64,000 nt of DNA from Polyangia bacterium (GTDB lineage Bacteria > Myxococcota_A > Polyangia > Nannocystales > Nannocystaceae): contig JAUIFF010000001.1 of the NCBI GenBank assembly GCA_030429545.1, positions 211,599 through 275,598 of the forward strand, read 5' to 3'. This document shows positions 3,478-59,730 of this stretch, one piece after another (position 1 is the stretch's first letter; every line of letters starts with the position of its first letter). The translations under genes were made by a program, and so were the position numbers. A model generated the notes under the pieces. That model searched no databases, was not told where the DNA came from, and was given only the letters and a program-made list of their open reading frames with translations.

Positions 3478-4803
3478 CTAAAGGTTTTCTTGGGGCCGGT
3501 CATACCGAAACGGGTAATGCTCGGGAAACGCTCCGCTGCCGTAGTCAATCGGACCGGTCGCTCGCAGGTTGGGGCGCAGGAGCAGCCTCCTGAGAATCTC
3601 CGGCACGAGAACCCTCGCAATTTGATCGCCGAGACAACGGTGATGACCGTGACCGAGGTGTAGGGCATGTACATGGTAGGGGCGGTCGGCTCGAAACGTC
3701 TCGGGCTCATCAACCAGATGGTGGTCGAACATCGCCGACTGGGTCAGTGCCAATACCGTGGAACCTGCGGGGATAAAAGTCTCGTGGGCTGTGCCCCGGG
3801 CCAACACGTGATCGGTTGCACTTACACGAAATAGATATGGCAAGAAGGGATGGAAACGTAGGGCTTCCCACACATAGCCGCAAAATTCGTCAAAGTCGCC
3901 CCGGTTGGCGACCTCTCGCGCGTTTGCGAAAATTGCCGGTCGTGCCAGCAGTTGTTCGAGGGCATGGGCTGTGACCTTGGCGGAGGTCTCGACGGTGCCG
4001 ATCAGTAGGCCTCCGATGTTTGTCACCAACGCCAGGATGTCAAACCCGAGCTCCGGAGGAAGTTGCATCTTCAACATTCGCGCGACGATGTCATCTGCTG
4101 TCGGGTCGACCTTGAGCTCGGCGCCGCGGCGTTTCAGGAGTGCTCCGAGGGCCGCCCCGAGTTCTTGGTAGGCCACGCGGGAAGCCTGAAACACGGCCTC
4201 GGCATCCGCAAGTTGGTCGAACGGTTGATTAAAAAACGCATCGTACTGGATTGCCCGAGACCATCGCGCCATCGCTTCGACGCCGATCCCTGTGAGGCCA
4301 AAGTAGTCCTCGACCATTCGCAGTGGCACCCAACGGGTGAGCTTGGGTACGAGGTCGATCACACCGTCAGCGGCGTCGAGGGCTTGGTCCGTCAGCGTGC
4401 CGACGAGCGTGCGAAGTTTTGGCAAGTCGTCGCGGTTGAGAACCGCATGCATGATGCCCTTATCGCGCTGGTTGAGCGTGGTCTCGTCAAACGCGAGCAT
4501 GTGGTTGTCCATCTTCGCTTTATTGAGGTCGACGGTGAAAACCGCGGGTAAGCTCAGTACCTCATGGACGTCGTTGCTGTTCGCCACAAGGACGGCCTGG
4601 TCGGTGGTGAGTATCGGCATATGTCGCCGAAGCTCCGCAAAGAACTGCCGTGGCTTGTCTCGCATCAATCGACGAACGAGCGCAAAACGTGAGTCGGGCT
4701 CGGCCTTTGCGACCTGTCGCAGTAGTCTGCGACCCCGACGACCCCGACGACCCATATGACGACGAAAACGACCACTACATTTCATAGTGGAAGTATCCTG
4801 CAA
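3478..4803 (-). CDS. Cytochrome P450 monooxygenase
   Basis: Heme-binding signature LGHGHHRCLG (FxxGxHxCxG), the ETLR-like EALRFHP block and a PxRW-like segment. The true start is probably an internal Met, since the first 40 aa of the ORF are Arg-rich. Confidence 0.85.
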   Translation of the reverse strand: MQDTSTMKCSGRFRRHMGRRGRRGRRLLRQVAKAEPDSRFALVRRLMRDKPRQFFAELRRHMPILTTDQAVLVANSNDVHEVLSLPAVFTVDLNKAKMDNHMLAFDETTLNQRDKGIMHAVLNRDDLPKLRTLVGTLTDQALDAADGVIDLVPKLTRWVPLRMVEDYFGLTGIGVEAMARWSRAIQYDAFFNQPFDQLADAEAVFQASRVAYQELGAALGALLKRRGAELKVDPTADDIVARMLKMQLPPELGFDILALVTNIGGLLIGTVETSAKVTAHALEQLLARPAIFANAREVANRGDFDEFCGYVWEALRFHPFLPYLFRVSATDHVLARGTAHETFIPAGSTVLALTQSAMFDHHLVDEPETFRADRPYHVHALHLGHGHHRCLGDQIARVLVPEILRRLLLRPNLRATGPIDYGSGAFPEHYPFRYDRPQENL

Positions 4804-4939
4804 TTGAAAATACCTTGCAACTACAACGAAATCGAGCCCGCCTGCTCGCAGGTGAACACTTCGGCTCGCGGGCTGCCACTATTTCGCGCGTGCGGTTTGG
4901 CTGGTGCCTGCTGTGAGTGCCGTGTGGACGCGACCTCGA

Positions 4940-6229
4940 CTATGTCTTGGGCAAAGTGTCGTGCAAGACCTCTAAGATCACGCCGGTGCCGGCCGTGCCC
5001 GACCACTGGGGTGGCCCGCCGGTTTCCCGGGCAAAGCCGTCGCAGCCGTCGCGAAAACCGAGAGTCATGCCTTCTTGTAGATACACGTGACGTTTGAGTA
5101 CGACCTCGGCGATGACCTCGGTTCCCGGCATGGCACCGAGGCTGTCGGGGATCATCGTCACGGTGCCGACGGCTGTTGCTGAACCGAGAAACACGAGGAC
5201 CTCGTCGCCGCTAAACATGGGGGTGTGGCGACCACCTTGGTAGGGGTGGAGCAGGTGCAGGCGGGCGCGGAAGCGGTGGCGCAGTTGCCTGGCGTTTTCG
5301 GTGATCAACAGGTCGCCCTTGCGCAGGCGGTTGCGGTTGAAACGTTTGGACAGGCCCTCGAGGACTAGCCCAATGTGTTCGCCAGCACCGGCATCTTCGT
5401 GGCGGACATGAAATGACTCGATGCTGCGGACGGCGACAGGCGCTTCAAACCGCGAGCCGAGCAGGGTCAGGTGTTGCCCACGACTGACAGTTCCGTGGCG
5501 CACGATCCCCTCCACAAGGACTTTTTTGGGCTCACCGAGTGGGTGACGGCGGTGCAGGATATCGAGGGCGACAACTGTCGGCGGGGTCGCGTCGTAGGGG
5601 GTGAGCTGGAGTTCGCGGTCGAGCACATCGATGAGGGTGTTGACCGGTAGTTGCCAGTTGCGATCGCCAGTTAGAGCCTGGCCCGCAGCTCCGCGCAGGA
5701 CGACCATGTCATCGCCGTCGGCCCCGACATCGCTGACGACCTCGCGCAGTTCGGTTTCGATGACATCGAGCAGCTCCGGGTCTTCGGCTATGTCGCACTT
5801 GTTGATGAAGGTGACAAACTGGCGGACACCGGCAGCAGCAGCCAGGCGAATCAGCTCAAATGTTTGGGCACGCGGGCCTACGCTCGCGTCGACGACAATG
5901 ATCGCGCTGTCGACCGAGGCCAGCAAAGTTGCACTCGAGCGGACCCGCTTGCGCCGTCCTGAAACATCAAAGTGGGCGACCCGACGGCTCAGGGTTTCGT
6001 AGCTGAGTTTGGTGGGGAGGACCGTACCCGAGGGATAGGCTTGGTAGTGGGCGACAAATCCGGGGTCGTCGCGGCGGTCGAGTTGTTCGACGGTTTTGGC
6101 CTCGGCGTGGCAGCCCGGCCGTTGGTCAAGCGCCGCTAGCAGGGCGGCAACCAGCGTGGTTTTGCCGTCGCCGTGATGGCCGATGGTGGCGACCGAAAGC
6201 AGCGGTTTTTCACGGGAAGTAGTCGACAT
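4940..6229 (-). CDS. EF-Tu-like translational-GTPase paralog, divergent (catalytic His replaced by Arg)
   Basis: Collinear with EF-Tu over domains 1-3: P-loop GHHGDGKTTL (EF-Tu GHVDHGKTTL), NKCD G4 box, GGRHTPMF (EF-Tu GGRHTPFF). The DCPGH box reads DVSGR and the SALK G5 box reads GAAG. Confidence 0.75.
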   Translation of the reverse strand: MSTTSREKPLLSVATIGHHGDGKTTLVAALLAALDQRPGCHAEAKTVEQLDRRDDPGFVAHYQAYPSGTVLPTKLSYETLSRRVAHFDVSGRRKRVRSSATLLASVDSAIIVVDASVGPRAQTFELIRLAAAAGVRQFVTFINKCDIAEDPELLDVIETELREVVSDVGADGDDMVVLRGAAGQALTGDRNWQLPVNTLIDVLDRELQLTPYDATPPTVVALDILHRRHPLGEPKKVLVEGIVRHGTVSRGQHLTLLGSRFEAPVAVRSIESFHVRHEDAGAGEHIGLVLEGLSKRFNRNRLRKGDLLITENARQLRHRFRARLHLLHPYQGGRHTPMFSGDEVLVFLGSATAVGTVTMIPDSLGAMPGTEVIAEVVLKRHVYLQEGMTLGFRDGCDGFARETGGPPQWSGTAGTGVILEVLHDTLPKT

Positions 6230-17440: not shown

Positions 17441-17722
17441 GTTGTCGTCGTCGCCTGGCAAACTTGCGTGCTGCAACGACGGTTTGATAGGGTCGTGTTG
17501 CTTCGCACCAAAGTGTATAGGCATCTAGTATGAAAGCGCGTTGGCTTGGCCCCGTCCTACTCGCCGAACACCGGAATCAGCTGTCGTCGTCGCTCGGCAA
17601 ACTTGCGCGCTGCAACGGCGGTAAAACACGGTCGTGCTGCTTCGCGCCAAAGTGAAGGCATCTAGTATGAAGGCGCGTTGGCTTGGCCCCGGCCTACTCG
17701 CCGAACACCCGAATCAGCTCGA
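17441..17722. repeat. Tandem duplication of a ~140-bp unit in the intergenic region upstream of the cysteine-rich-repeat lipoprotein gene
   Basis: Two ~85%-identical copies (tcgtcgtcgc..ggcaaacttgcg.gctgcaacg...catctagtatgaa.gcgcgttggcttggcccc...). Each carries a short ORF starting MKARWLGP. Confidence 0.7.
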
Positions 17723-37604: not shown

Positions 37605-38110
37605 GGGGGGCGCGCGGGCCTTTTTGGCCGTGAGAGCGGTCGGGAGAGGCTTGCGGTAGGTCGACTACAGCGTCGCCTCGCACGACTCGCTTCACGGCCA
37701 AAAATTCTCCGCGAATCGTGGTGTGGGGCAGGGTTTTGGTTCTGGGAAGCGCGCGGGCGTTTTGGGGAGCGCGGGCAGAGAGACGGTCGGGAGAGGCTTG
37801 CGGTAGGTCGACTACAGCGTCGCCTCGCACGACTCGCTTCACGGCCAAAAATTCTCCGCGACTCGTGGTGTGGGGCAGGGTTTTGGTTCTGGGAAGCGCG
37901 CGGGCGTTTTGGGGAGCGCGGGGGGCAGAGAGAGCGGTCGGGAGAGGCTTGCGGTAGGTCGACTACCGCGTCGCCTCGTGCGACTCGCTTCACGGCCAAA
38001 AATTCTCCGCGACTCGTGGTGTGGGGCGGGGTTTTGGTTCTGGGAAGCGCGCGGGCGTTTTGGCTGTGAGAGCGGTCGGGAGAGGAGGCCGGCTTGAGTC
38101 GTCCGGGACT
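37605..38110. repeat. Tandem array, ~3.5 copies of a ~135-bp intergenic repeat (family also present at 38900-39575)
   Basis: Unit ...gagcggtcgggagaggcttgcggtaggtcgactacagcgtcgcctcgcacgactcgcttcacggccaaaaattctccgcgaatcgtggtgtggggcagggttttggttctgggaagcgcgcgggcgttttgg. Contains an imperfect hairpin CACGACTCGC-(20 nt)-GCGAATCGTG. Confidence 0.8.
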
Positions 38111-38899: not shown

Positions 38900-39575
38900 T
38901 TCTCGGTAGAGTTAACTTCGCTCTCAAATCAGTTTCAGCAGCGAGTTCGGTCGGGAGAGGCTCGCACAAGGTCGACGACAGCTTCGCCACAACCGGCTTC
39001 ACGCGAGTCGTAGAGGCTTGGTTTTGGTTGGGCGCGGGGGCAGTCGGTCGGGAGAGGCTCGACGACAGCTTCGCCTCACAACCAGCTTCACGCGAGTCGT
39101 AGTGTGAGGCTTGGTCTTGGTTGTGGTGGCAGCGAGTTCGGTCGGGGGAGGCTCGACGACAGCTTCGCCTGTCACGACTCGCTTCACGGCCAAAACATGT
39201 TCGTGAATCGTGGTGTGAGGCTTGGTCTTCGTTCTGGCGCCGTGAGGGACCTGTTTGGTCGTGAGAGTCGGGAGGGACTGGTGGCAGTGAGAGCGGTCGG
39301 TAGGCCGACGATCGCTTCGCCTGTCACGCGACTCGCTTCACGGCCGAAAATCTTCGTGGATCGTGGGGCGCGGGGCCGCCAGTGTGTCGGTGGTCGACTA
39401 TACGACTCGCGTTACGGCCGGAAATCCGCGAAACGCGGTGTGGGGTTGGTCTGGGCACTGGCGGGTGTACGAGTTCGCCTGGGCAGGCGGGTGTGGGGTC
39501 AGAGCGGTCGCGGGAGAGGCTCGCAGTCGGTTGACGACGACTTCGCCTCTCACGACCGAGAAGTCGCTACGACAC
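38900..39575. repeat. Second block of the same intergenic repeat family, ~5 degenerate copies
   Basis: Recurring ...ggtcgggagaggctcgacgacagcttcgcct..cacgactcgcttcacggccaaaa..tt.gtg.atcgtggtgtg.gg.ttggt.t.g... units, related to the 37605-38110 block. Together they flank the DHFR-like gene. Confidence 0.75.
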
Positions 39576-48072: not shown

Positions 48073-51000
48073 GTGAAGCTTGTTCGTCGCGCCACCCTGA
48101 GCCACAAAGTCGGATCGACCGAAAAGGTCTACGAAGTCGAACTGTGTCGGGTCGCCAGCGGCAAGTTTCTCGTCAACTTCCGGTACGGGCACAAGGGCAG
48201 TGTCCTCAAGGAAGGGACCAAAACCCATCGCTCTGTCGCAGAAGCCAAGGCTCGCTCCATTTTTGCTCGACTCGTCGACGACAAAAAACGCAAGGGCTAT
48301 GTCGAGGCTGGGCAACCCCAACGGGTGGCGAAGAAGTCGAACAAAGGGTCGGGGTCGGCATTGCCGGCTTCGCCCGGGGATCGGATCAAGGGGATCATCG
48401 CCCGGGTCGAGAACCAAAATACGACGTCGTGGGCACTGTCCCGCGCGGTTTGGCGGGCTGGCGAGCTCAAGCTCAAAGAGGCCGTGCCCCACATGGTCAA
48501 GCTCGTTGGCTCGGGCTCATGGATGCTCCAGTACTGCTTAGCCTGGGCACTTGGTCGATGCGGTGACGCGACAACCTTTGAAGCCTTGCTGCGCACCCAG
48601 GGCAACGAGGTCGCGCTACTCAAGTGCGATAGTTGCCACAAGAAAAATCGGATTCCGTGGTCACGGTTTCCCACCTACGCTGCCAGCTGTGGCCATTGTG
48701 GGCAAAAGCTTCGCCGTGTCGATCGGCCGTTGAGCCTGGCGGCCGACTCGATTCAGGTGTTGTTTCCGGCGGCCTCCAAACATCCCGCAGTTGCGAGGAT
48801 GGCACTCGAAGCCGTGCGCGCCTGGGGTGGCGAGGCGGCCGAAAGTGTAGCTACATCGGTTTACGATTCGCTCCCGGGAGTCTTTCAACAGGCGCTCGAC
48901 AAAGAAGACGAAGACGCGTTTGCAGCTGCCCTCGAAGCCGAGTTGGCAGCACCCGGGCGTGATACCTGGACCATTTTAGAGCGGATCTACATGCTCGAGG
49001 ACCCGTGCATTCGCCCGGGCCTCCTCAAAGCACTGCGTACCCTCGACCTCAAACCCGGGGCGTTTCGGGCGATGCGACACATCTTTAAGCTCGCCGAAGG
49101 TCGGGGCGACGGCGAGGTGTTTGGTCTGCTCGCCTACCGGTTTGAGCGCGCGCGCGGGAACTTCCGCAACTCCCGTGTCTATACAAGTGTCCATGGGCGG
49201 TGGACCCGTGCCAGCACCGAGTTGGCCAAGGACGATTCGCGCCTGTGCTTTTCCAACACCACCCGCGAGTACATGCGCCGTCGCACCTGGCGGACGGTCC
49301 AGCGCTTGGGTGAGCTCGGCGAGGCCGAACAGTACGTGCGGATGGCGGTTGGTGTGTTGCTACCATTTACCGACACCGACGGCGGCAACGTCCGAAGCCG
49401 TCGCAGATACAACTACCGCACGCGGGGTTACACGACCGACTACTGGGATAAATTTTGCCAGTACGAGGCGTTTAACCGAGTCCTGTTTGACAACAGCCAT
49501 CGCTACGAGCGGCAGCATCGGGCCAAGTTGTGGCGTTGCACCGGCGGGTTTACGCCCGGTGATGCACTCCCGCAAAACCGCGAAGAGGCGTTTGCCGAGC
49601 TTTGGGACAAGGTCCCGGTCGGGCTGCTGCACTTGCTAGCCGAGAGCCGTTGCGAGCAGGTGCACGACTTTGCTTCGCGGGCGTTGCGGGCCAACAAAAA
49701 ATTCTGCGAGGGTCTCGATGTCGAAACCCTCACCATGTTGTTGGGTCGCGGGTACAAGCGCACGGTCCGGCTCGCGTTTGAGTTGGCAGTCGAGCGTTAC
49801 GACCCGCGCAACCCCGACATCGACTTGGTCGCAGCCATGGTCAACTGTTCGGTTGAGGAGGCACGGCTGCAAGCCCAGCGCTGGATCCATCAGGACCGTC
49901 AGCGGTTTTTGCAAGACCGTGGCCTCGTCGCCGACATGATCCTCTCGCAGCAACAGGACACCCGCAAGTTCACCGAGCGGTTGTTGGCGTCGGCCTCGCT
50001 CGATCCACTCGCCGCCGAGGCCTTGATCGCCACCGTGATTTCACGGCTGTTGGTCCTGTCGCCCGGCTTCAACGAGAACACGGCATTGGCCAAGGATGCC
50101 GGCGAGTTGTTGCTCAAGGTGTTTGCTCGGCCGCTGCGCTCGATCGGTTTGGGTGTTGTCGAGGACCTCGCCAAGCACAAGCTGGTGGCGCTGCAGCAGT
50201 TTGCCGCGCAAATCCTCGTGGCCCACGACACGCGCCCCCGCGACCTCCCCGAGGACTTGCTGGCGGCGGTCATGAACTCGATTCACCCAGACGTCCGCGG
50301 AATTGGCATCCGCCTGTTCGGTGAGTTGCCCGACCGCGAGTTGCTCGACCGCAAGGCCCTGATCCTCGCATTGGTGACCTCGAGGCAAGAAGATGTCCGT
50401 GAGGCCATCCGCCCGGTCATTCAACGGTTGGTCGGGACCTACCGCGAGTTTGCCGATGAGCTCTCGTCGCTTTTGCTCGCCAGCCTGCTGCGCAAGGAGT
50501 CCCACAAGGGGCTGCACAACTACCTCCTGCGGCTGTTTAAAGACGAGCTGTTGCCCTCGCTTCGGCACGTTCGTAAGCCGTTGGTGTTGCGACTTTTAAG
50601 GGCCCCATCGTCGGCTGCCCAGGAACTCGGTGGCTTGCTGCTCGCCCGCAACATCGACCCAGCCGAACTCACTGTGCGCGAGGTTGTACGGTTGGCCAGC
50701 CACGAGATTCGTTCGGTCCGCGAGGCCGCGTGGAAGTTTTACACCGACAACCCCGAGCGGATCCGTGACGAAATCGAAGAGGGGATCCGCCTGCTCGACG
50801 CCACCTGGGACGACTCGCGTGCATTTGCATTTGAGTGGTTTGGCACTGTGCTCGACAAGCACGACTTCGACCCGGATATTCTCGTGTCGATTTGCGATAG
50901 CGTGCGCGAAGATGTCCAGCAGTTTGGGCGCCGGTTGGTCACCCGCTACTTTACCGAACAAGACGGTCACGAGTACCTGTTGCGACTGTCGGAGCATCCG

Positions 51001-51378
51001 TCGTCGGAGCTGCAGATTTTTGCCAGCAACTACCTCGAAGACCACGCCAGCGGCTCGCTCGAGCGCTTGCGTGAGCTCGAGCCGTACTTTTGTAGTGTGC
51101 TGTCTCGGGTCAACCGCGGACGTGTGGCCAAAGCCCGTGTATTTGCATTTTTAGCTGCCGAAGCGCGCAAGTCCGACGAGGCGGCGGCGATGATTTCCAA
51201 GCTACTCACCCGGCAGTCGCTGACCATGGCGATCGGCGATCGGGCCAACTGCATCACCGGGATGTTGGAGCTCCATCACGAGCATCCTGACTTTGACATC
51301 CCGCTGCGGGTGGTGGCGGTGGAGCAGCGCACGGGCAAGTTCAGCAACTCAGCAGGGGAGGGGCAGCGTGGAGTTTAA
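48073..51378 (+). CDS. Large WGR-domain protein with extended alpha-helical (HEAT/ARM-like) repeat region; candidate retron accessory protein
   Basis: 1101 aa; N-terminal WGR-like domain (KVYEVELCRVASGKFLVNFRYGHKGS) followed by ~950 aa of predominantly alpha-helical repeats. Probable GTG start. Confidence 0.7.
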   Translation: MKLVRRATLSHKVGSTEKVYEVELCRVASGKFLVNFRYGHKGSVLKEGTKTHRSVAEAKARSIFARLVDDKKRKGYVEAGQPQRVAKKSNKGSGSALPASPGDRIKGIIARVENQNTTSWALSRAVWRAGELKLKEAVPHMVKLVGSGSWMLQYCLAWALGRCGDATTFEALLRTQGNEVALLKCDSCHKKNRIPWSRFPTYAASCGHCGQKLRRVDRPLSLAADSIQVLFPAASKHPAVARMALEAVRAWGGEAAESVATSVYDSLPGVFQQALDKEDEDAFAAALEAELAAPGRDTWTILERIYMLEDPCIRPGLLKALRTLDLKPGAFRAMRHIFKLAEGRGDGEVFGLLAYRFERARGNFRNSRVYTSVHGRWTRASTELAKDDSRLCFSNTTREYMRRRTWRTVQRLGELGEAEQYVRMAVGVLLPFTDTDGGNVRSRRRYNYRTRGYTTDYWDKFCQYEAFNRVLFDNSHRYERQHRAKLWRCTGGFTPGDALPQNREEAFAELWDKVPVGLLHLLAESRCEQVHDFASRALRANKKFCEGLDVETLTMLLGRGYKRTVRLAFELAVERYDPRNPDIDLVAAMVNCSVEEARLQAQRWIHQDRQRFLQDRGLVADMILSQQQDTRKFTERLLASASLDPLAAEALIATVISRLLVLSPGFNENTALAKDAGELLLKVFARPLRSIGLGVVEDLAKHKLVALQQFAAQILVAHDTRPRDLPEDLLAAVMNSIHPDVRGIGIRLFGELPDRELLDRKALILALVTSRQEDVREAIRPVIQRLVGTYREFADELSSLLLASLLRKESHKGLHNYLLRLFKDELLPSLRHVRKPLVLRLLRAPSSAAQELGGLLLARNIDPAELTVREVVRLASHEIRSVREAAWKFYTDNPERIRDEIEEGIRLLDATWDDSRAFAFEWFGTVLDKHDFDPDILVSICDSVREDVQQFGRRLVTRYFTEQDGHEYLLRLSEHPSSELQIFASNYLEDHASGSLERLRELEPYFCSVLSRVNRGRVAKARVFAFLAAEARKSDEAAAMISKLLTRQSLTMAIGDRANCITGMLELHHEHPDFDIPLRVVAVEQRTGKFSNSAGEGQRGV

Positions 51379-52999
51379 CTACCGCTACGCCGGTTCGACC
51401 GCGGTCGACTCGGGCGCCCGTTCGACGGACATGTCGTTTGCCCCCGATACCCATCGGGAGCCGACCTACTTCACGGGAGAGTTGCATAAGCAACTAGAGT
51501 TCCGAGAGGCGATTTCTGCCCTCCACGACGTTGTGGTTTCGGACCTGCGGTTCAAGCCCAAGGACAAAACGGCCTACAAAGAGTGGCTCGCCACCCAGGA
51601 GCAGGTCGACTGGCAACAGGTCGCCCAAAACCGCAGCCAGGTGCAGGCCGAAATCACGAGCACGCAACGCGAACTCAACGACCTGCAAACCCGCTTTCGC
51701 AACCGGATGTCGAGCTTTTACAAGGCCCGGCAAAAGTACTTCGACTACCTCTACAAAAAAGACCGCGACGCCTGGTTTGTTTTAGACCCGGTGATCACCG
51801 TCCACCCAGACCAGGTCTTTTTTGAGTGCTTTAGCCAGGACGAGTCGAGCTACGGCCGCCTAGGCTGCAACTACGAGGTGTTCAAGAACATCGGCGAGTT
51901 CGCCTGCGGGACCACCAACATCGACTACAGCGACGCGCTGTACAACGAGTTCCAAAAGATCCGTCGCTACAAAACCACCACGTTTCAGATCGACCCCGGT
52001 GGGTTTGATGTCGAAACCACCGGCGAAGACGGCTACCGCGAATGCAAGATCGACCTGCCCGACAGTTGGGTCCGCGGGTTTTTGCAAGTCAGCTCGGCCA
52101 TGACGCTGCCGGCAGTCCGCTTCGATTTGGAGCCGATGGACATTCACAACTTGTGCTTTGTCCTGCGTCGCAACCGCGAGCGTCACGGGCCACGCAGCAT
52201 GCGTTACAAGCTCAACCCCGGGCATCCCGTGCGGGTGGTGTTTGAGCCGTGGAATATCGAGGTTGTCTGCCCGCGTTCGATCTACAAGGGCGACTCCCAG
52301 CAGGAAATCCGCGTGTGGGGCCGTCGGCGGATCCACATCTTGGAGCGCCTGATCCCGGTCGCAAAAAAGTTTACAGTACATCTTTTAGGCCGTGGACTGC
52401 CCTCGTTTTACGTCGCCGATCTAGGCGATATGAACTTCACCCTCGGGCTTTCCGGATGGACCGCCAACGACTGGTCCAAGGCCGGCAACTTCGACCTGAT
52501 GGCCCCTCGGGCTAAGGTCGACACCCTCACCAAACGCCGTGTGTTTGACGCTCTCAAGCAAAACTGGCGCGAGACCCCGCAGAGCTTGGCCAGTCGGCTC
52601 AACCTCGACCGCAAACTCGTGTTGGGTGCGCTCGGTGCGTATACCCAGGCAGGACGTGCGATCTACGACCTCGACCAAGAAGTCTATCGCGTCCGCGAAC
52701 TCAGCCGCGACCCGCTGCCGATGGACAAACTGCGGTTTGCCAACGAACGCGAGCAACAGGCCAACCAGATCTGCGATCGTGGGCAGGTCAACGTCACGAG
52801 TGCCGACACGCGCATGAACGGAACCGTGACGGTGCGCGGACGCGTGTTGCGGTTCACCCCCGAACTTGTGATCGATCGCGACGAGCGGATGATCGACGCC
52901 CGCTGTAGTTGCAACTTTTTCTTTCAAAACAAGCTGCACAAGGGTCCGTGTGAACATATACTGGCCCTACGCATCGCCCACCGAAAGTCGCAAAAGTAG
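51368..52999 (+). CDS. SWIM zinc-finger protein; candidate retron accessory protein
   Basis: C-terminal CSCNFFFQNKLHKGPCEH matches the SWIM CxCx(n)CxH signature. The putative GTG start overlaps the upstream stop (GTGGAGTTTAA); an alternative ATG lies at ~51431. Confidence 0.65.
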   Translation: MEFNYRYAGSTAVDSGARSTDMSFAPDTHREPTYFTGELHKQLEFREAISALHDVVVSDLRFKPKDKTAYKEWLATQEQVDWQQVAQNRSQVQAEITSTQRELNDLQTRFRNRMSSFYKARQKYFDYLYKKDRDAWFVLDPVITVHPDQVFFECFSQDESSYGRLGCNYEVFKNIGEFACGTTNIDYSDALYNEFQKIRRYKTTTFQIDPGGFDVETTGEDGYRECKIDLPDSWVRGFLQVSSAMTLPAVRFDLEPMDIHNLCFVLRRNRERHGPRSMRYKLNPGHPVRVVFEPWNIEVVCPRSIYKGDSQQEIRVWGRRRIHILERLIPVAKKFTVHLLGRGLPSFYVADLGDMNFTLGLSGWTANDWSKAGNFDLMAPRAKVDTLTKRRVFDALKQNWRETPQSLASRLNLDRKLVLGALGAYTQAGRAIYDLDQEVYRVRELSRDPLPMDKLRFANEREQQANQICDRGQVNVTSADTRMNGTVTVRGRVLRFTPELVIDRDERMIDARCSCNFFFQNKLHKGPCEHILALRIAHRKSQK

Positions 53000-53047
53000 G
53001 GCGGCTTCAGGATTTACACCGGAGGAAGATCCAAGCATTTCAAGTTT

Positions 53048-53286
53048 TGTCATGACAGTGGCGGGGTAGGACCAGCCTTGCAGGAACGGGCGGCGGATCG
53101 CCGTCCATGCGATTTGCTCAATCATGCATCACTGGTTCGCTCTTTACTGTGCGGTACATCGGGGTAGCGGGACCATTCCAGTTCGGCTCCCGAGAAGCGA
53201 ATGTGTCCCGCTACCCCAAGTACCGCTGGAGTTGAGCGACCCAGTACTGAGAGCCTTCGAAGGCCCGACTCGCCACTGTCGTGACA
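53048..53286 (+). ncRNA. Candidate retron non-coding RNA (msr-msd) between the SWIM gene and the RT gene
   Basis: Bounded by a 14-bp inverted repeat (TGTCATGACAGTGG at ~53048-53061; CCACTGTCGTGACA at ~53273-53286, one G-U pair) followed by a G-run. It contains a small GC stem (GGGCGGC-ggatc-GCCGTCC) and a long hairpin GCGGTAC-atc-GGGGTAGCGGGAC...GTCCCGCTACCCC-aa-GTACCGC (~53151-53227). Confidence 0.5.
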
Positions 53287-53329
53287 CCTTTTTCCCGCTC
53301 GCATCCTGCGAGCACCTGTCCGGTTAGCC

Positions 53330-54886
53330 ATGTCTCAGCCCCGTACCCGCCAAGAGCTCTACGAACGGATCCGCGAATCCTCCAAAGATGAAGTCATCTT
53401 GGAGGAAATGATCCGCCTCGGGTTTTGGCCGTCCGGTGGCACCCTGCCCAACGACCCGGCCGACGAGATTCGCCGCCGCGGACAGCTGCAAAAAAAGCTC
53501 AACGACCTGCGGGCCCGTGTTCAGCGGATGTACAACGAGCGTCAGCTACTGGCCGATGCTCGCAAAAAACGCATGGCCGATGCCCGGCGGCGGCGGGTAG
53601 AGACCAAACAAAGGCGCGAGCAGGTACGGGCCGAGAAAGCCGCGGCTTGGGCCGAGCGCAAGAAACGTGAGCTGCTGTATTTGGGCGAAGAGGTTTCGGG
53701 TGCCCTGCAACATCGGTTGGCCAATCGCGACAAGCTCGCCGCCAACAAACTGCCGGTGTTTACCAGCCCCGAGGCACTCGCCAGCGCGATGCGTATACAA
53801 CTAAGCGAGCTGCGATTTTTAGCCTACGATCGCCAAGTTGCCAGGAGCCATCACTACCGCCGCTTTGAAGTGCCCAAAAAGACAGGTGGTGTCCGGCGGA
53901 TTTCAGCCCCGATGCCGCGGCTGAAGGCTGCGCAAACCTGGATTTTAAACCACATCCTCAAGCAAGTCCCGGTCCACGAAGCTGCCCACGGTTTTCGTCA
54001 CCACCGGAGTATCGCCTCCAATGCCCGACCACACTTGGGTGCGGACATTGTCATCAACATGGACTTGGAGGACTTCTTTCCCACGGTCACGTACCCCCGG
54101 GTAAAGGGCCTGTTCGTCTCACTCGGCTACAGCGAGTCGGTTGCGACCGTCCTGACACTGCTGTGCAGTGAGCCCGACGTCGAAGAGGTTGAACTCGACG
54201 GCAACCGCTACTTTGTCGCAGTCGGTCCTCGCCGTCTGCCCCAAGGGTCACCTGCAAGTCCCGCCCTCACCAACGTATTGTGTCGCAACCTCGACAAGCG
54301 ACTGGCCGGGTTGGCCGAGTCGATGGGCTTTACCTACACCCGCTACGCCGACGACCTGACGTTTTCTGGCGGTCGTGATGTGTCGCGGACCAGCTTGGTC
54401 GGGCGCCTGATTCGCGCAGTCGAAGACATCGTCGACCACGAGGGGTTCAAGGTGCATCCCAAAAAGACACGAGTGATGCGGCGGACAAAGAAGCTCGAGG
54501 TCACCGGTGTGACCGTCAACGACAAGCTCGGTGTCGATCGCAAAACCCTGCGTCGGTTTCGGGCCACGCTCTACCAAATCGAAAAAGACGGGCCCCAGGG
54601 CAAGCACTGGAATCACAGCGCCAATGTCTTGAGCTCGATGAACGGCTACGCAAACTTTGTGGCGATGATCGACCCCGAAAAGGGCCGAGAACTTCAGCGA
54701 CGCACACGAGCGTTGTTGGTCAAATATGGGCAAAAGCCAGTGGCTCCCCCCCCGCAGGCCGCAGCGCCCAAGGCGAGCCAGCCTCCTCCGCCCCCGCCCG
54801 CGGCGGCACCCAGCCCGTCAACGAGTCAGCCCGAGCCTGAGCCCGAGCCCAAGAAGAAAAAGAAGAAGCGCTGGAAGCTTTGGTAG
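53330..54886 (+). CDS. Reverse transcriptase, retron-type
   Basis: RT motifs IVINMDLEDFFPTV, LPQGSPASPALTN and YTRYADDLTF (YADD). Retron-associated NAxxH (SNARPH) and VTG (LEVTGVTVN) motifs. Unusual ~170-aa charged coiled-coil N-terminal extension and a Pro/Lys-rich C-terminus. Confidence 0.8.
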   Translation: MSQPRTRQELYERIRESSKDEVILEEMIRLGFWPSGGTLPNDPADEIRRRGQLQKKLNDLRARVQRMYNERQLLADARKKRMADARRRRVETKQRREQVRAEKAAAWAERKKRELLYLGEEVSGALQHRLANRDKLAANKLPVFTSPEALASAMRIQLSELRFLAYDRQVARSHHYRRFEVPKKTGGVRRISAPMPRLKAAQTWILNHILKQVPVHEAAHGFRHHRSIASNARPHLGADIVINMDLEDFFPTVTYPRVKGLFVSLGYSESVATVLTLLCSEPDVEEVELDGNRYFVAVGPRRLPQGSPASPALTNVLCRNLDKRLAGLAESMGFTYTRYADDLTFSGGRDVSRTSLVGRLIRAVEDIVDHEGFKVHPKKTRVMRRTKKLEVTGVTVNDKLGVDRKTLRRFRATLYQIEKDGPQGKHWNHSANVLSSMNGYANFVAMIDPEKGRELQRRTRALLVKYGQKPVAPPPQAAAPKASQPPPPPPAAAPSPSTSQPEPEPEPKKKKKKRWKLW

Positions 54887-55145
54887 TGCATTCGGCCCAA
54901 GCAGCAACGCTAGCCAGCTCGGCATTATCGCGGCGAACGAGCCGGAGAAGCCCTAGAAACTTAGTGCGTCCGGCCCCAAGTTGCTTAACTCGTTATCGCG
55001 GGCCGAGCCGGAGCCGGAGAAGAAGCTTTAGAAACTTTAGGTAGTGCGTCCGGCCCCAACTAACTCGTAATCGCCGGCGCCGAAGAAGATGCGCTAGAAC
55101 TTTGGTAGTGCGTCCGGCCCAGGGAGCGAGCCGGAGCCGAGGAAG
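54850..55145. repeat. Four degenerate ~70-bp direct repeats beginning at the 3' end of the RT gene
   Basis: Recurring gagccggag(aag)aagcgct.gaa.ctttggtagtgcgtccggcccca... units. The first copy includes the RT stop codon. Confidence 0.7.
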
Positions 55146-55372
55146 AAGCGCTGCAGTGGGTATCCGCAGTCACGCACCAACACGAATGGATCGTCCCCCA
55201 ATGGCACCGGGTCGCCTTCGATTTTGACCTCGGCTGTGACGACCCCGTTTCGAGACCCCCGAGGGCGACCGGTTTTTTGGCCGACAGAGCCAACCGTTTG
55301 GGCGTTGTCGCCAACTAAAAAAATATAATTGCCACCGATCGATCATCGCGGGCTCGTTACTTCACCCGTGTC

Positions 55373-58300
55373 ATGAGACCGAACCCCCGATGCTCCTGGT
55401 TGGCTGTAGTTCCACTTATCGCCCTTTCGCTTGCCTGTTGTTCACCTGCCTCAGACCTGCACTCACCGGTCACAGCAGCCGAGCCCATTGTCCAGCCCCG
55501 GGCGTTTTCGCTGCAGTTCGACACGGCCTCAGCTAGGTCTCAGCAGGCGCCGGCGTACCAGCTAACCACCAGTGATGGCACCGGACTTCGGCTCGTTTCG
55601 CTCAACGCTCGGGTCGCTATCGAAGACCCGTTGGCGCTGACCGAGTTGCACTTTGTGTTTGAAAATCCGCAGCCACGAACAATCGAAGGGCGGTTTGAAC
55701 TCGAGATGCCCAAGGGCGCCGCGATTTCGCGGTTTGCCATGAAGATCAACGACAGCTGGCAAGAGGGTGAAGTTGTTGAGCGTCAGCGGGCGCGTCGGGT
55801 GTTTGAGGACTTCTTGCACCGTCGCCAGGACCCGGCGCTGTTGGAGCACGACGCAGGCAACCGGTTTCGTGCGCGGGTGTTTCCGATTCCGGCAAATGGG
55901 CGCAAGGAGCTCATCGTGACCTATTCGCAGGAGTTGGGAACTGCGCCCGACCTCTACCGCTTGCCGCTTGTCGGCCTCCCGCAGCTCGATGAGTTGCAGG
56001 TGACCCTGGTGCAGGCGACGCGGGGCACATCGAACAAAAGTGTGTATACAAATGAAACAGCGATTGTGCATGCACCTACGGTCGGGGCGAGCAACTCGAT
56101 CCGCCGGCGTGCTTTTACGCCAACAGCCGATGTCGTGATCCACGAGCAGACTGGCGCACGCGAGCTCGGGATACGCCGCGGCGCGATGGCCATGGCTCGC
56201 GTCGAGCTGACCGCGGCGCCAGGAAAGACCTTCGAGGCTGCTCCCGTAGAGAGGGTGGTGGTGCTACTCGACACCAGCGCCTCGCAGACGCTCCGGCTCG
56301 CCGACACGCTCGCGCGTTTGCAGCAGCTTGTTGACCACTTGCAAAACAAGCGTCCGTTCGAGCTCCATGTACTTGCATTTGACCAGGAAGTTGTCGACAT
56401 CTATTCGGGGCCGAGTGGCGGGTTTGGTCTCGAGCAGCATCAGCGGGTGTTGCAGCGAGGTGCGTTTGGAGCGACGGACCTGGCCAAGGCGATGCAGACC
56501 GTGCGTGCCCGTAACCTCGAAGGCGCGCGGATTATCGTCGTTTCCGATGGGGTAGCGACTGCCGGTGTGGACGCGCCAGGTCGCCTCGGGGAGGTTGCTG
56601 CTGAGCTGCGGGCAGCCGGTGCGCACCGAGTTGATGCCATGGTGCCAGGTTCCAATAGCGATCGGGCAACCCTACGGGCGCTCACCGTGCCGACCAAGCC
56701 CGAAGGGGCCAGCGCCCGTGCCGGGATGACGCTCGACGCCCAATGGCCGACTGCGAAAGTTGCAAACTCCTTGCAGGCACAAGCTTTTACCAACGTTGCT
56801 ATTGATGTTCCAGGGAGTCGCTGGCTGTGGCCCCGAAGCCTAGATGGCGCACAGCCAGGCGATACGGTTACGATCTACGCCGAGATGGCCAACGCCAAAA
56901 ACATGCATGTGCATTTTCAGGGGGCAGCGCTCGCAGACAAGCAAATCAACCTGGCCTCGACACCCGGGCCGCTGCTCGAGCGCGCGTGGTTTGGCGCGCG
57001 AGTTGAGCACCTACTCGCCCAGTACGGTCACCTGCGAGACCGCGACCACCACGAGCAACGCCAGGCGCTCAAGCAGCATATCGTTGAGCTTTCCACCCAC
57101 TATCGCGTACTCACTCCGTTTACGGCCCTGCTGGTGCTCGAGTCCGAGTGGGACTACGAGCGCTATGGGATTGAGCGCCAAGCCCTAACCGACATCTTGA
57201 GTGTGGGGCCAAACGGTGTGGATGTGCTTGCTCGTACAAACACTTCTACCGCGGGCAGTTCACGAAGGTCGCAGGAGCCCACCCTTTCTGATGCATGGGA
57301 CAGCCCGGTGACCGAGCGCTTAGCTGGGCAAGACACCGATGGCGACGGCATTGCCGACAGCCACGACAGTTGCCCGAGTGCACCCGAGGCGCTCAATGGT
57401 TTCGAGGACGAAGACGGTTGCCCCGATGCAATCCCGATGCAAGTTGCCAGGTTTACCGGAACGATCAGGGGCATCCACTTCCCGCAAAACTCGGCCAAGA
57501 TCCAAAAGAAGTCTGCACCGGTACTCGACCGTGCGGCATCTGTACTCCAGGAATTCCCCGGGATTGTCGTCGAGGTTTCGGGGCATGCAAGCGCGGGAGA
57601 GCGGCAACCCGACAAGCTGGCAAAACGCCGGGCACAGGCGGTTGCCCGCTACCTGCGTGCCCACGGGATCGACAGCAAACAGGTTGTGGTGCGGGGTGCG
57701 GGGGTCAGCGAGCCGATCGACACCAACGAAACCAAAAAGGGTCGAGCGAACAACCGTAGGATCGAGTTTTCGTTGCGTTCGGGCGAATGGGTGCGCCGCA
57801 ACAATGCGGTGACACAGACCTGGGCACCAGCCCACTCAGGTAAGTACCAGGCGTTTCGCACATTGCTTGCACAGGAGCCCAACAAGTCACTTGTGCATGC
57901 AAAAACATGGCAAGCGAGCGAGCCCGGAAATGTAATTGCCCTGATCGCGCTCGCCGAGGCCCTCGAAGCTTCGGGGCAAACTGGCGAGGCGGCACGGGCC
58001 TACGGCTCGATCATCGATCTTTACCCGTCGCGTGCAGATTTGCGGCGACACGCCGGCCAGCGACTCGAGTCACTCGGCGTCGCAGGCCTAGAACTCGCGG
58101 CCGATACCTACAAAAAAGCGGTTGCCCAACGCCCAGACCATCCTTCGAGCCACAGGCTATATGCCTATACACTAGTACGTCTCGGTCGCCTCGAGGAGGC
58201 GTTTGAGGCGATCGTCGAGGGGCACAAACAGGAATATCCGCAGGGACGGTTTCGCGGGGTCAAACGCATCTTGAGCGAAGATATCGGATTGATCGCAGCC

Positions 58301-58771
58301 GCCTGGGCGAAGGCCGAACCCACGCGGCGAGCAGAGATCGAAACAAGGGCCCATCAGTGGGGACAGGCCCTGGCGAGTGAGCCCTCACTACGGTTTGTGC
58401 TGAGTTGGGAGACCGATGCCAACGACGTCGACTTCCATATCCGTGACGGCGCAGGCGGCCACGCGAGTTTCCGCCAACCCGCGCTTGAATCAGGCGGGGA
58501 GCTCTATGCCGACGTCACCACCGGCTACGGCCCCGAGTGCTTTGCCATCGATGGCGAGGCCACGGCGTTTCCGTACACACTCAACGCCCACTATTACCGC
58601 AAGGGCCCCATGGGCTTTGGTATGGGAACGGTGCAGGTACAAGCATATGATGGCAAGGGCAACCTCAGGTTTGCCGACCATCCATTTGTGATCATGAACG
58701 ACAACGCGGCGGTCGACCTGGGAACGATCGCCGAGCCGTTGTTTGAGGATGACACCACGGGCCGAAAGTGA
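55373..58771 (+). CDS. Large multidomain lipoprotein: VIT domain + vWA domain + thrombospondin-type-3 repeats/OmpA-like domain + TPR-like region
   Basis: Lipobox LSLACCS; VIT-like block (FENPQPRTIEGRFELEMPKGAAISRFAM); MIDAS VVLLDTSASQ; DTDGDGIADSHDSCP...EDEDGCPD calcium-binding repeats; OmpA-like ending NRRIEF. Confidence 0.75.
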   Translation: MRPNPRCSWLAVVPLIALSLACCSPASDLHSPVTAAEPIVQPRAFSLQFDTASARSQQAPAYQLTTSDGTGLRLVSLNARVAIEDPLALTELHFVFENPQPRTIEGRFELEMPKGAAISRFAMKINDSWQEGEVVERQRARRVFEDFLHRRQDPALLEHDAGNRFRARVFPIPANGRKELIVTYSQELGTAPDLYRLPLVGLPQLDELQVTLVQATRGTSNKSVYTNETAIVHAPTVGASNSIRRRAFTPTADVVIHEQTGARELGIRRGAMAMARVELTAAPGKTFEAAPVERVVVLLDTSASQTLRLADTLARLQQLVDHLQNKRPFELHVLAFDQEVVDIYSGPSGGFGLEQHQRVLQRGAFGATDLAKAMQTVRARNLEGARIIVVSDGVATAGVDAPGRLGEVAAELRAAGAHRVDAMVPGSNSDRATLRALTVPTKPEGASARAGMTLDAQWPTAKVANSLQAQAFTNVAIDVPGSRWLWPRSLDGAQPGDTVTIYAEMANAKNMHVHFQGAALADKQINLASTPGPLLERAWFGARVEHLLAQYGHLRDRDHHEQRQALKQHIVELSTHYRVLTPFTALLVLESEWDYERYGIERQALTDILSVGPNGVDVLARTNTSTAGSSRRSQEPTLSDAWDSPVTERLAGQDTDGDGIADSHDSCPSAPEALNGFEDEDGCPDAIPMQVARFTGTIRGIHFPQNSAKIQKKSAPVLDRAASVLQEFPGIVVEVSGHASAGERQPDKLAKRRAQAVARYLRAHGIDSKQVVVRGAGVSEPIDTNETKKGRANNRRIEFSLRSGEWVRRNNAVTQTWAPAHSGKYQAFRTLLAQEPNKSLVHAKTWQASEPGNVIALIALAEALEASGQTGEAARAYGSIIDLYPSRADLRRHAGQRLESLGVAGLELAADTYKKAVAQRPDHPSSHRLYAYTLVRLGRLEEAFEAIVEGHKQEYPQGRFRGVKRILSEDIGLIAAAWAKAEPTRRAEIETRAHQWGQALASEPSLRFVLSWETDANDVDFHIRDGAGGHASFRQPALESGGELYADVTTGYGPECFAIDGEATAFPYTLNAHYYRKGPMGFGMGTVQVQAYDGKGNLRFADHPFVIMNDNAAVDLGTIAEPLFEDDTTGRK

Positions 58772-58774
58772 ATA

Positions 58775-59730
58775 TTTCCTGCACGAAGAGTGAGGCAGGC
58801 TTCGATGGCGATTGGTCGCGCGAACATATTCCTGCACGAGGAGTGAGGCAGGCTTCGATTGAGATGGGTCGAGCGAGCATACTTTCAGCACGAAGAGTGA
58901 GGCAGGCAGGCTTCGATGGAACAACACGGGTCCTGCCGCGTACCCCACTTCGAGCCTCCGGGAGCACGGCAGTTGTGACGCATGTCTATGCAAGTGGTTT
59001 GGCGGGGCGCCGGCGATAGGGTGGAGCAGGACGTCGGTGCGGCCTCCGTTCGAAGTCGGGGACCCCCCGCGTCACCCGTTCGTCGGAGTTCGACGGTAGC
59101 CCGCATCTCGGGCAACCGTGAAACGGTGATGGCACCGCCTTGTTGACCCGCGTCAGGTTTCGGGTAGGCGCCGCTTGATGACCACGTTACTCGTTCGTTG
59201 GACCTTGGTGATGGCACTAACTGAGCGATGGAGACTGGTCGAGCGAGCATATTTTCAGCACGAAGAGTGAGGCAGGCAGGCTTCGATGGAACACCACGGG
59301 TCCTGCCGCGTACCCCACTTCGACCCTCCGGGAGCACGGCAGTTGTGACGCATGTCTATGCAAGTGGTTTGGCGGGCGTCGGTGAAACGGTGATGGCACC
59401 GCCTTGTTGACCCGCGTCAGGTTTCGGGTAGGCACCGCTTGATGACCACGTTACTCGTTCGTTGGACCTTGGTGATGGCACTGACTGAGCGATGGAGACT
59501 GGTCGAGCGAGCATATTTTCAGCACGAAGAGTGAGGCAGGCTTCGATGGAACACCACGGGTCCTGCCGCGTACCCCACTTCGAGCCTCCGGGAGCACGGC
59601 AGTTGTGACGCATGTCTATGCAAGTGGTTTGGCGGGGCGCCGGCGATAGGGCGGAGCAGGACGTCGGTGCGGCCTCCGGTCGAAGTCGGGGACCCCCCGC
59701 GTCACCCGTTCGTCGGACTTCGGATCCATT
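58775..59730. repeat. Compound tandem-repeat array (~950 bp) built from three sub-units; not CRISPR
   Basis: Unit A (~140 bp, ...ggtcgagcgagcatattttcagcacgaagagtgaggcagg...ggcagttgtgacgcatgtctatgcaagtggtttggcggg) occurs 3 times plus two truncated copies. Units B (gcgccggcgataggg...cgttcgtcgga) and C (gtgaaacggtgatggcaccgcc...gagcgatggagact) occur twice each, in order a'a'ABCACAB. Confidence 0.8.

Follow-up and report, generated by a model that had tools for sequence, protein, structure and literature searches.

The founding retrons Mx162, Mx65, Sa163 and Ne144 belong to type XIII, which combines a reverse transcriptase (RT) of clade 10 with a SWIM protein and a WGR/HEAT-ARM protein (Mestre 2020, PMC7736814). 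Retrons of this type share a distinctive ncRNA structure and pass mainly by vertical inheritance, and their SWIM protein contains a transposase-like DEDE motif and has been suggested to originate from Mutator/IS256-like transposases (Mestre 2020, PMC7736814). The RTs of the Mx162 group carry an N-terminal extension, and the 241-nt transcript of Mx162 gives rise to an msDNA of 162 nt in which RNA and DNA overlap by 8 nt (Simon 2019, PMC6868368). The priming guanosine of retrons is usually found in the motif TAGC, with CAGC in its place in Mx162 and Sa163 and GAGC in Mx65 (Simon 2019, PMC6868368), and "two opposing G residues" are a described retron feature (Mestre 2020, PMC7736814). Our literature search found no paper establishing the function of type XIII, whether in phage defence or otherwise, and a retron census preprint makes no mention of this type.

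We analysed a stretch of 64,000 nucleotides (the window), in which positions 53048–53286 of the + strand had been read in the initial annotation as a retron msr-msd region. This reading was supported by the type of the RT, the accessory genes, homology of the RNA and covariation, and we are highly confident that the region encodes the msr-msd RNA of a type XIII retron of the Mx162/Mx65/Sa163/Ne144 family; the host genome is probably that of a member of the Nannocystaceae (Myxococcota). The computed basis for this assignment consists of the gene set, the homology to the spacer of an Ne144-orthologous retron and a conserved, covarying secondary structure. Transcription, msDNA and a 2′-5′ branch would be expected at this locus by analogy with established retron biochemistry. 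The region sits within a 330-nt gap between two + strand ORFs, 51293–52999 upstream and 53330–54886 downstream, and the order at the locus is WGR/HEAT, SWIM, ncRNA, RT. As in retrons generally, a structured ncRNA closed by a1/a2 repeats lies beside the RT gene and on the same strand.

The RT gene (53330–54886, + strand) encodes a protein of 518 aa which was identified as a retron RT by Pfam, PADLOC and its motifs. The Pfam RVT_1 domain covers residues 181–396 (5.9e−24); it is preceded by an N-terminal extension of ~130–180 aa and followed by a Pro-rich tail which ends in KKRWKLW. Among the PADLOC profiles the best match was RT_XIII (5e−190), the next profile reached 2e−94 and all top matches were retron RT profiles. 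Both the RT_XIII match and the start of RVT_1 at residue 181 agree with the clade 10 RT and extended N-terminus which define type XIII. The retron motifs NARPH (NAXXH, N231–H235), YADD (339–342) and VTG (391–393) are all present, and NAXXH, YADD and VTG were invariant across 15 aligned relatives. Models for other kinds of RT were matched below their cut-offs: group_II_RT_mat scored 72.7 bits against a cut-off of 300, giving no group II intron assignment, and the DRT models scored 36 against 390 (Drt2) and 18.8 against 200 (Drt3a). The NCBIfam models for the Ec67, St85 and TIR retrons also gave matches below cut-off only. The best matches of the RT were proteins from Nannocystaceae and from Myxococcales MAGs, with identities of up to 90%. 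Its identity to two RTs of N. exedens, P0037 and P0040 (Q8VRM1, the published Ne144 RT), was 59%.

The C-terminus of the RT (window 54790–54886, residues ~470–518) consists of a Pro/Ala-rich low-complexity linker followed by KKKKKKRWKLW, and the terminal K-x-x-W-K-L was invariant in 15 of 15 aligned RTs. This terminal motif looks like a short docking peptide.

Two accessory genes precede the ncRNA on the + strand. The first (48073–51378) encodes a protein of 1101 aa with a WGR-like domain and HEAT/ARM repeats, which matched the PADLOC profiles WGR_XIII (E = 0, 1134 bits) and HEAT-ARM_XIII (4e−41); Pfam gave WGR and HEAT_2 matches, both weak. A WGR/HEAT gene is also the first gene in the N. exedens locus L081. 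The second (51368–52999) encodes a SWIM zinc-finger protein. Its maximal ORF starts at TTG 51293, and its start codon is likely to be GTG 51368, which would produce an 11-nt overlap with the WGR stop: the window contains AGGGGAGGGG followed by GTG at 51368, and the SWIM and WGR genes of N. exedens have an identical 11-nt overlap. The match of this gene to SWIM_XIII (1.8e−244) begins at residue 27 of the maximal ORF, and the Pfam SWIM domain lies C-terminally, at residues 532–559. PADLOC assigned the three genes flanking the ncRNA to one system (WGR_XIII, SWIM_XIII and RT_XIII), and the locus contains both of the linked genes by which type XIII is recognised, encoding the SWIM protein (cluster 114) and the WGR-like/HEAT-ARM protein (cluster 216). 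Directly downstream of the RT gene, positions 55373–58771 encode a VIT/VWA/OmpA-like/TPR protein of 1132 aa. As this gene is not kept beside related retrons we treated it as unrelated to the retron, which it probably is.

The 14-bp inverted repeat which had been noted as bracketing the region is indeed present, with TGTCATGACAGTGG (53048–53061) pairing with CCACTGTCGTGACA (53273–53286), and it belongs to a longer helix of 18 bp without gaps (53048–53065/53269–53286), of which it is the outer part and which contains two G-U pairs. It was the best gapless inverted repeat with a span of 205–270 nt in the 64-kb window (score 17). However, inverted repeats of at least 14 nt are common, with 37 pairs in the window, so the repeat alone is unconvincing and it is the covariation across species which carries the statistical weight. 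The fold of 53040–53295, which the initial annotation had proposed as a check, gave −135.1 kcal/mol compared to −88.3 ± 4.7 for dinucleotide-shuffled sequences (z = −10.0), and 0 of 200 shuffles were as good.

Several other repeats were observed in the window. An intergenic tandem array at 37632–38063 has 2.9 copies of a 147-nt unit (96% matching), and a 30-nt sequence in each of these units also forms inverted repeats with 37621–37650; a second array, at 38972–39170, has 2.2 copies of a 94-nt unit. At 953–1334, a 101-nt unit is repeated 2.6 times after two copies of a 60-nt unit, and the palindrome GCCACCGCGGTGGC occurs three times; among the long-range inverted repeats of the window, those that arise from this array rank second. 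Further tandem repeats were found at 17443–17719 (139-nt unit, 2.0 copies) and at 58772–58907 (53-nt unit, 2.5 copies), the latter beginning immediately past the stop codon of the VIT/VWA/OmpA gene.

We compared the RNA between species using a covariance model, R1, which was built from seven close sequences and has 245 positions and 70 pairs. R1 had one match in the 64-kb window, at 53046–53290 on the + strand (266 bits), with a − strand mirror of 53 bits. In a set of 86 related loci covering many phyla, at least 57 gave a + strand match located upstream of the RT, with scores of 61–280 bits. In the resulting 68-sequence alignment, 94.3% of cells were paired, compared to 65.3% in shuffled alignments and 37–42% when partners were slid. 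Compensatory changes on both sides were found in 59 of the 70 pairs, including all 14 of the modelled a1/a2 pairs, and there were 1302 double-change cells against 351 in the shuffled alignments; homologous loci thus keep compensatory pairing in both a1/a2 and the long stem. The window sequence has canonical bases at 68 of the 70 consensus pairs. It should be noted that these covariation counts are somewhat inflated by the fitting of the 68 sequences to the model structure, but the effect is far above the controls and agrees with two analyses which are independent of the model fit. The first of these, an alignment-free scan, identified 36 loci with a 12–25-bp inverted repeat of unrelated sequence spanning ~220–245 nt; these repeats end 1–80 nt before the RT start, and the individual MFE folds show one architecture. 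The second, MAFFT with RNAalifold, found compensatory changes in 28 of 37 pairs. RNAalifold missed the a1/a2 helix because arm lengths vary, so that an alignment of the a1–a2 spans by MAFFT only misaligns the arms; this is resolved by the covariance-model alignment. The strand is fixed by conserved G-U pairs (helix 4), and the scores of 266 versus 53 bits also favour the + strand.

A scan of 52000–56000 against Rfam with E values of up to 10 returned three chance-level miRNA/snoRNA matches only (E ≥ 0.48), two of which came from hairpin models of miRNAs and lay on the − strand, opposite the msd stem. A scan for promoters and terminators found no sigma-70-like promoter beside a1 and no terminator; its only sigma-70-like match was at 52935–52962, inside the SWIM gene. 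About 20 nt upstream of a1, the sequence CC(G/A)GGAGGA (window 53020–53030) is common to 6 of 7 close spacers despite the divergence of this flank, the N. exedens spacer being without it. The motif could be part of a promoter or processing site.

The a1/a2 stem of the RNA is composite, with an internal loop separating a variable outer helix from a conserved inner one. On the a1 side, which is ~32 nt long and comparable to the ~34-nt repeat of Mx162, the 18-nt outer helix (53048–53065) pairs with 53269–53286 and the inner 4-bp helix CCUU (53076–53079) pairs with AAGG (53260–53263). The a2 side (53260–53286) comprises the inner AAGG(C) at 53260–53264, CC at 53265–53266 and the outer helix at 53269–53286. 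Following a1, msr hairpin 1 (53088–53106) has the form GGGCGGCG-GAU-CGCCGUCC. A short GC stem-loop had previously been described here with 7 bp and a 5-nt loop; it is present, but with 8 bp (53088–53095/53099–53106) and a 3-nt loop. In this hairpin (helix 4) 99.8% of cells were paired, and 5 of the 8 pairs had changes on both sides. The next segment, 53108–53129, is a variable part of the msr with a weak second hairpin: a small hairpin forms in the MFE fold, and the consensus holds only 2 pairs which are 73.5% paired (helix 5). The RT termination zone and the msr/msd overlap likely fall within this segment, with termination being placed by analogy with the 144-nt length of Ne144.

The msd stem-loop is 115 nt long (53131–53245; helices 6–12, 88–98% paired). 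Its base is formed by three helices (53131–53148/53230–53245) whose sequence is conserved across phyla, while the distal hairpin (53151–53226) is hypervariable in sequence with its pairing kept. This distal hairpin has a 7-bp stem (53151–53157/53220–53226), a 3×2 internal loop, a 13-bp stem (53161–53173/53205–53217) and a structured 31-nt loop. The stems and loop are as they had been described for the long msd hairpin, but they make up only the distal part of the msd. All 21 pairs of helices 8–10 were changed on both sides, most with four pair types; between the window and locus L082, for example, G-C is replaced by U-A. A single-stranded stretch in which the template would start (53246–53259) follows the msd and ends at the conserved "opposing" G53259 in a CG|AAGG motif. 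The element therefore contains both the short msr hairpin (53088–53106) and the long, stable msd stem-loop (53131–53245) which characterise retrons. As initially annotated, the RT start codon (ATG 53330) lies 43 nt past the 3′ repeat.

The priming (branching) guanosine is most likely G53080, to judge from conservation. The initial annotation had instead placed it in the G-run immediately after the 14-nt repeat; however, C53062–G53065 are base-paired inside the a1/a2 helix, and G53080 lies 15 nt further in, where the extended, imperfect a1/a2 stem ends on its inner side. G53080 was invariant in 41 of 41 MAFFT-aligned elements and lies in TTGC, a variant of the retron TAGC motif. T[T/A]GC occurred at this position in 65 of 68 model matches, as counted by pattern (near the branch motif, the window sequence is displaced by one column in the model alignment), with TAGC in the Ne144-ortholog locus of N. 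exedens. Immediately 5′ of G53080, the CCUU (53076–53079)/AAGG (53260–53263) helix was paired in 55–61 of 64 loci, with exchanges of UA to AU (3 loci) and CG to UA (9 loci). Its paired cells numbered 259, against 240 ± 3.4 after shuffling, and 0 of 1000 shuffles were as high. The sequence CG, 10–16 nt past the msd stem and followed by AAGG, was found in 64 of the 65 loci having T[T/A]GC. As CCUU directly 5′ of G53080 pairs with AAGG, G53080 faces the conserved G53259. At the level of sequence the context of G53080 thus fits both the TAGC rule and the opposing-G feature of retrons. On the other hand, the branch motif reported for Mx162 and Sa163, CAGC, differs from the T[T/A]GC of this family set. 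A local CCU/AGG hairpin was also considered as the sole fate of AAGG and rejected: it is possible in the window, but impossible in many of the relatives which keep the long-range CCUU/AAGG pairing.

When one genome per species was scanned, 80 further loci were identified, belonging to Myxococcota, Acidobacteriota, Planctomycetota, Cyanobacteria, Bacteroidota, Verrucomicrobiota and Proteobacteria. When seven close spacers were aligned, conservation extended from a1 to ~10 nt past a2 and both flanks diverged. Outside the window the sequence of a1/a2 differs between loci, while its position and span are kept. The gene order of the window was also found in the N. exedens locus L081 and in four other close loci. 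Compared locus by locus, the RNA was similar in sequence and structure to the Ne144-ortholog spacer and to those of at least 60 other type XIII loci.

Of the described retrons, Retron-Nex2 (Ne144) of N. exedens, a type XIII retron, has the same gene order and an RT which is 59% identical to that of the window. This comparison was made with L081 (WGR/HEAT–SWIM–gap–RT), from an isolate which is not the original strain and whose RT, P0037, is 88% identical to the published Ne144 RT, Q8VRM1. The ncRNA of L081 aligns end to end with that of the window; the msr hairpin and the msd base helices are identical, and the branch motifs, TAGC in N. exedens and TTGC in the window, align with each other. In contrast, compensatory changes separate the two loci in a1/a2 and in the distal msd stem, and the downstream neighbours of the two loci are different. 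Retron-Mxa1 (Mx162) of M. xanthus, the first retron described, shares RT clade 10, type XIII and the N-terminal RT extension. According to its published description, it also resembles our element in its long a1/a2 stem and in the length of its transcript (241 nt, compared to 239 nt for the element here), but differs in its 162-nt msDNA and in having CAGC at the branch. M. xanthus was absent among the 120 best matches of both RT queries, the second of which was seeded with an Archangium RT, and it therefore probably represents a more distant branch. Retron-Eco1 (Ec86) and the enterobacterial retrons have in common with this locus an a1/a2 stem, msr hairpin(s), an msd stem-loop and a priming G which lies in a TAGC-like motif and faces a second G; their RTs likewise contain NAXXH, VTG and YADD. 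They differ in belonging to another RT clade with other effectors, in their RTs of ~300–400 aa without an N-terminal extension and in their shorter ncRNAs.

Readings other than a retron were also weighed. A structured 5′ leader or cis-regulatory element of the RT mRNA, such as an attenuator, thermosensor or protein-binding site, which is never reverse transcribed, would account for strong structure 43 nt upstream of the RT start codon, and as no adjacent promoter was found the element is likely to be part of a longer operon transcript. Such a leader would, however, have to resemble a retron msr-msd throughout, with a1/a2, a TAGC-like G and its opposing G, an msr hairpin and a long msd stem, and to be homologous to the spacer of the Ne144-orthologous retron. 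No Rfam cis-regulatory family was matched, and in relatives from Cyanobacteria the RNA is found next to the SWIM gene, 1–2.3 kb from the RT start, which is unexpected for a translational leader. We therefore consider this explanation very improbable.

Even less credence can be given to the idea that the 18-bp repeat marks the ends of a MITE-like non-autonomous transposable element related to the transposase-derived SWIM/DEDE protein. Terminal inverted repeats around a ~240-bp segment and the suggested derivation of the SWIM protein from Mutator/IS256-like transposases (Mestre 2020, PMC7736814) would suit it, but the element is present in a single copy in 64 kb and its position relative to the SWIM and RT genes is fixed in loci of many phyla. 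The arms of the repeat change by compensatory substitution, instead of being conserved as a transposase binding site would be, and the G-U pairs show selection on one strand, at the level of RNA. We regard it as just as far-fetched that the region is an ordinary spacer with a chance repeat and GC-rich hairpins, or a short unannotated coding gene (e.g. ORF 53124–53327). Inverted repeats of at least 14 nt are frequent in the window, with 37 pairs, and mechanical ORFs of 67–69 aa overlap the region on both strands; but chance is opposed by the fold z score of −10 against shuffles and by covariation over 68 sequences. A coding reading of the spacer was ruled out, as stops occur in every + frame in 7 of 7 close relatives, where indels are not multiples of three; these stops likewise speak against translation within an extended RT or SWIM ORF, which the initial annotation had named as a refutation of its reading.

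Read as a type XIII msr-msd, the locus would be expected to work as other retrons do. Transcription of the RNA would run along the + strand and probably include the RT gene, and a1 (53048–53079) would pair with a2 (53260–53286) and so present G53080. The RT would bind the msr hairpin(s) and use the 2′-OH of G53080 as primer, copying the template leftwards from ~G53259/C53258 through the msd stem-loop (53245 to 53131) and stopping at ~53116–53125. The copied template would then be removed by RNase H, and the product would be a branched msDNA in which a hairpin DNA of ~137–145 nt is joined 2′-5′ to the remaining msr RNA. The msDNA–RT complex presumably acts with the SWIM and WGR/HEAT proteins as its presumed partners or effectors. 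The predicted msDNA is the reverse complement of ~53116–53259, its 3′ end being extrapolated only from the length in the name of Ne144 (144 nt), and folded as DNA it gave −43.6 kcal/mol (z = −8.4).

Some relatives are organised differently. Six type XIII relatives have two or three tandem ncRNA copies before a single RT (L008:5055–5565, L001:1006–1544, L018:5330–5917, L023:2920–3430, L028:2237–3080 and L021:5204–5964). The copies were aligned for L008, L001 and L028. Within each of these loci their core (branch motif, msr hairpin and msd stem base) is near-identical, and compensatory changes distinguish their a1/a2 arms and distal msd hairpins, so that several different msDNAs may be produced by one RT. 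In the cyanobacterial loci L020 (3423–7389) and L012 (4787–7410), the ncRNA directly follows the SWIM gene and extra genes precede the RT: an NYN-domain protein (4264–5052) and an RNase III + dsRBD protein (5241–5954) in L020, and an unassigned 302-aa ORF in L012. The a1/a2 duplex of retrons is known to be trimmed, and from its genomic position the RNase III gene beside the L020 retron is suggestive in this respect.

This locus adds to the first retron family ever described a further copy, which is intact and probably functional; it comes from an uncultured Nannocystaceae-like genome and yields predictions at the nucleotide level: a branch at G53080, a template start at ~53259 and an msDNA of ~140 nt. 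The locus would already be called type XIII by standard defence-system annotation, so nothing changes conceptually, and the question of what type XIII and its SWIM and WGR/HEAT proteins do belongs to the whole family and not to this locus. The most interesting material comes from the relatives, namely the tandem ncRNA cassettes and the NYN and RNase III genes between ncRNA and RT. Because the distal msd hairpin (53151–53226) is hypervariable yet always paired, and the tandem copies of the three aligned loci differ in a1/a2 and this same hairpin, it could be speculated that its sequence carries specificity and is not a passive stem; we consider this unlikely, and the window itself does not demand such a reading. 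If it were true, the msDNA stem would be a module for recognition, or a decoy, which can be exchanged and which the SWIM and WGR/HEAT proteins read, and the mostly vertical inheritance of type XIII could reflect a role other than abortive-infection defence.
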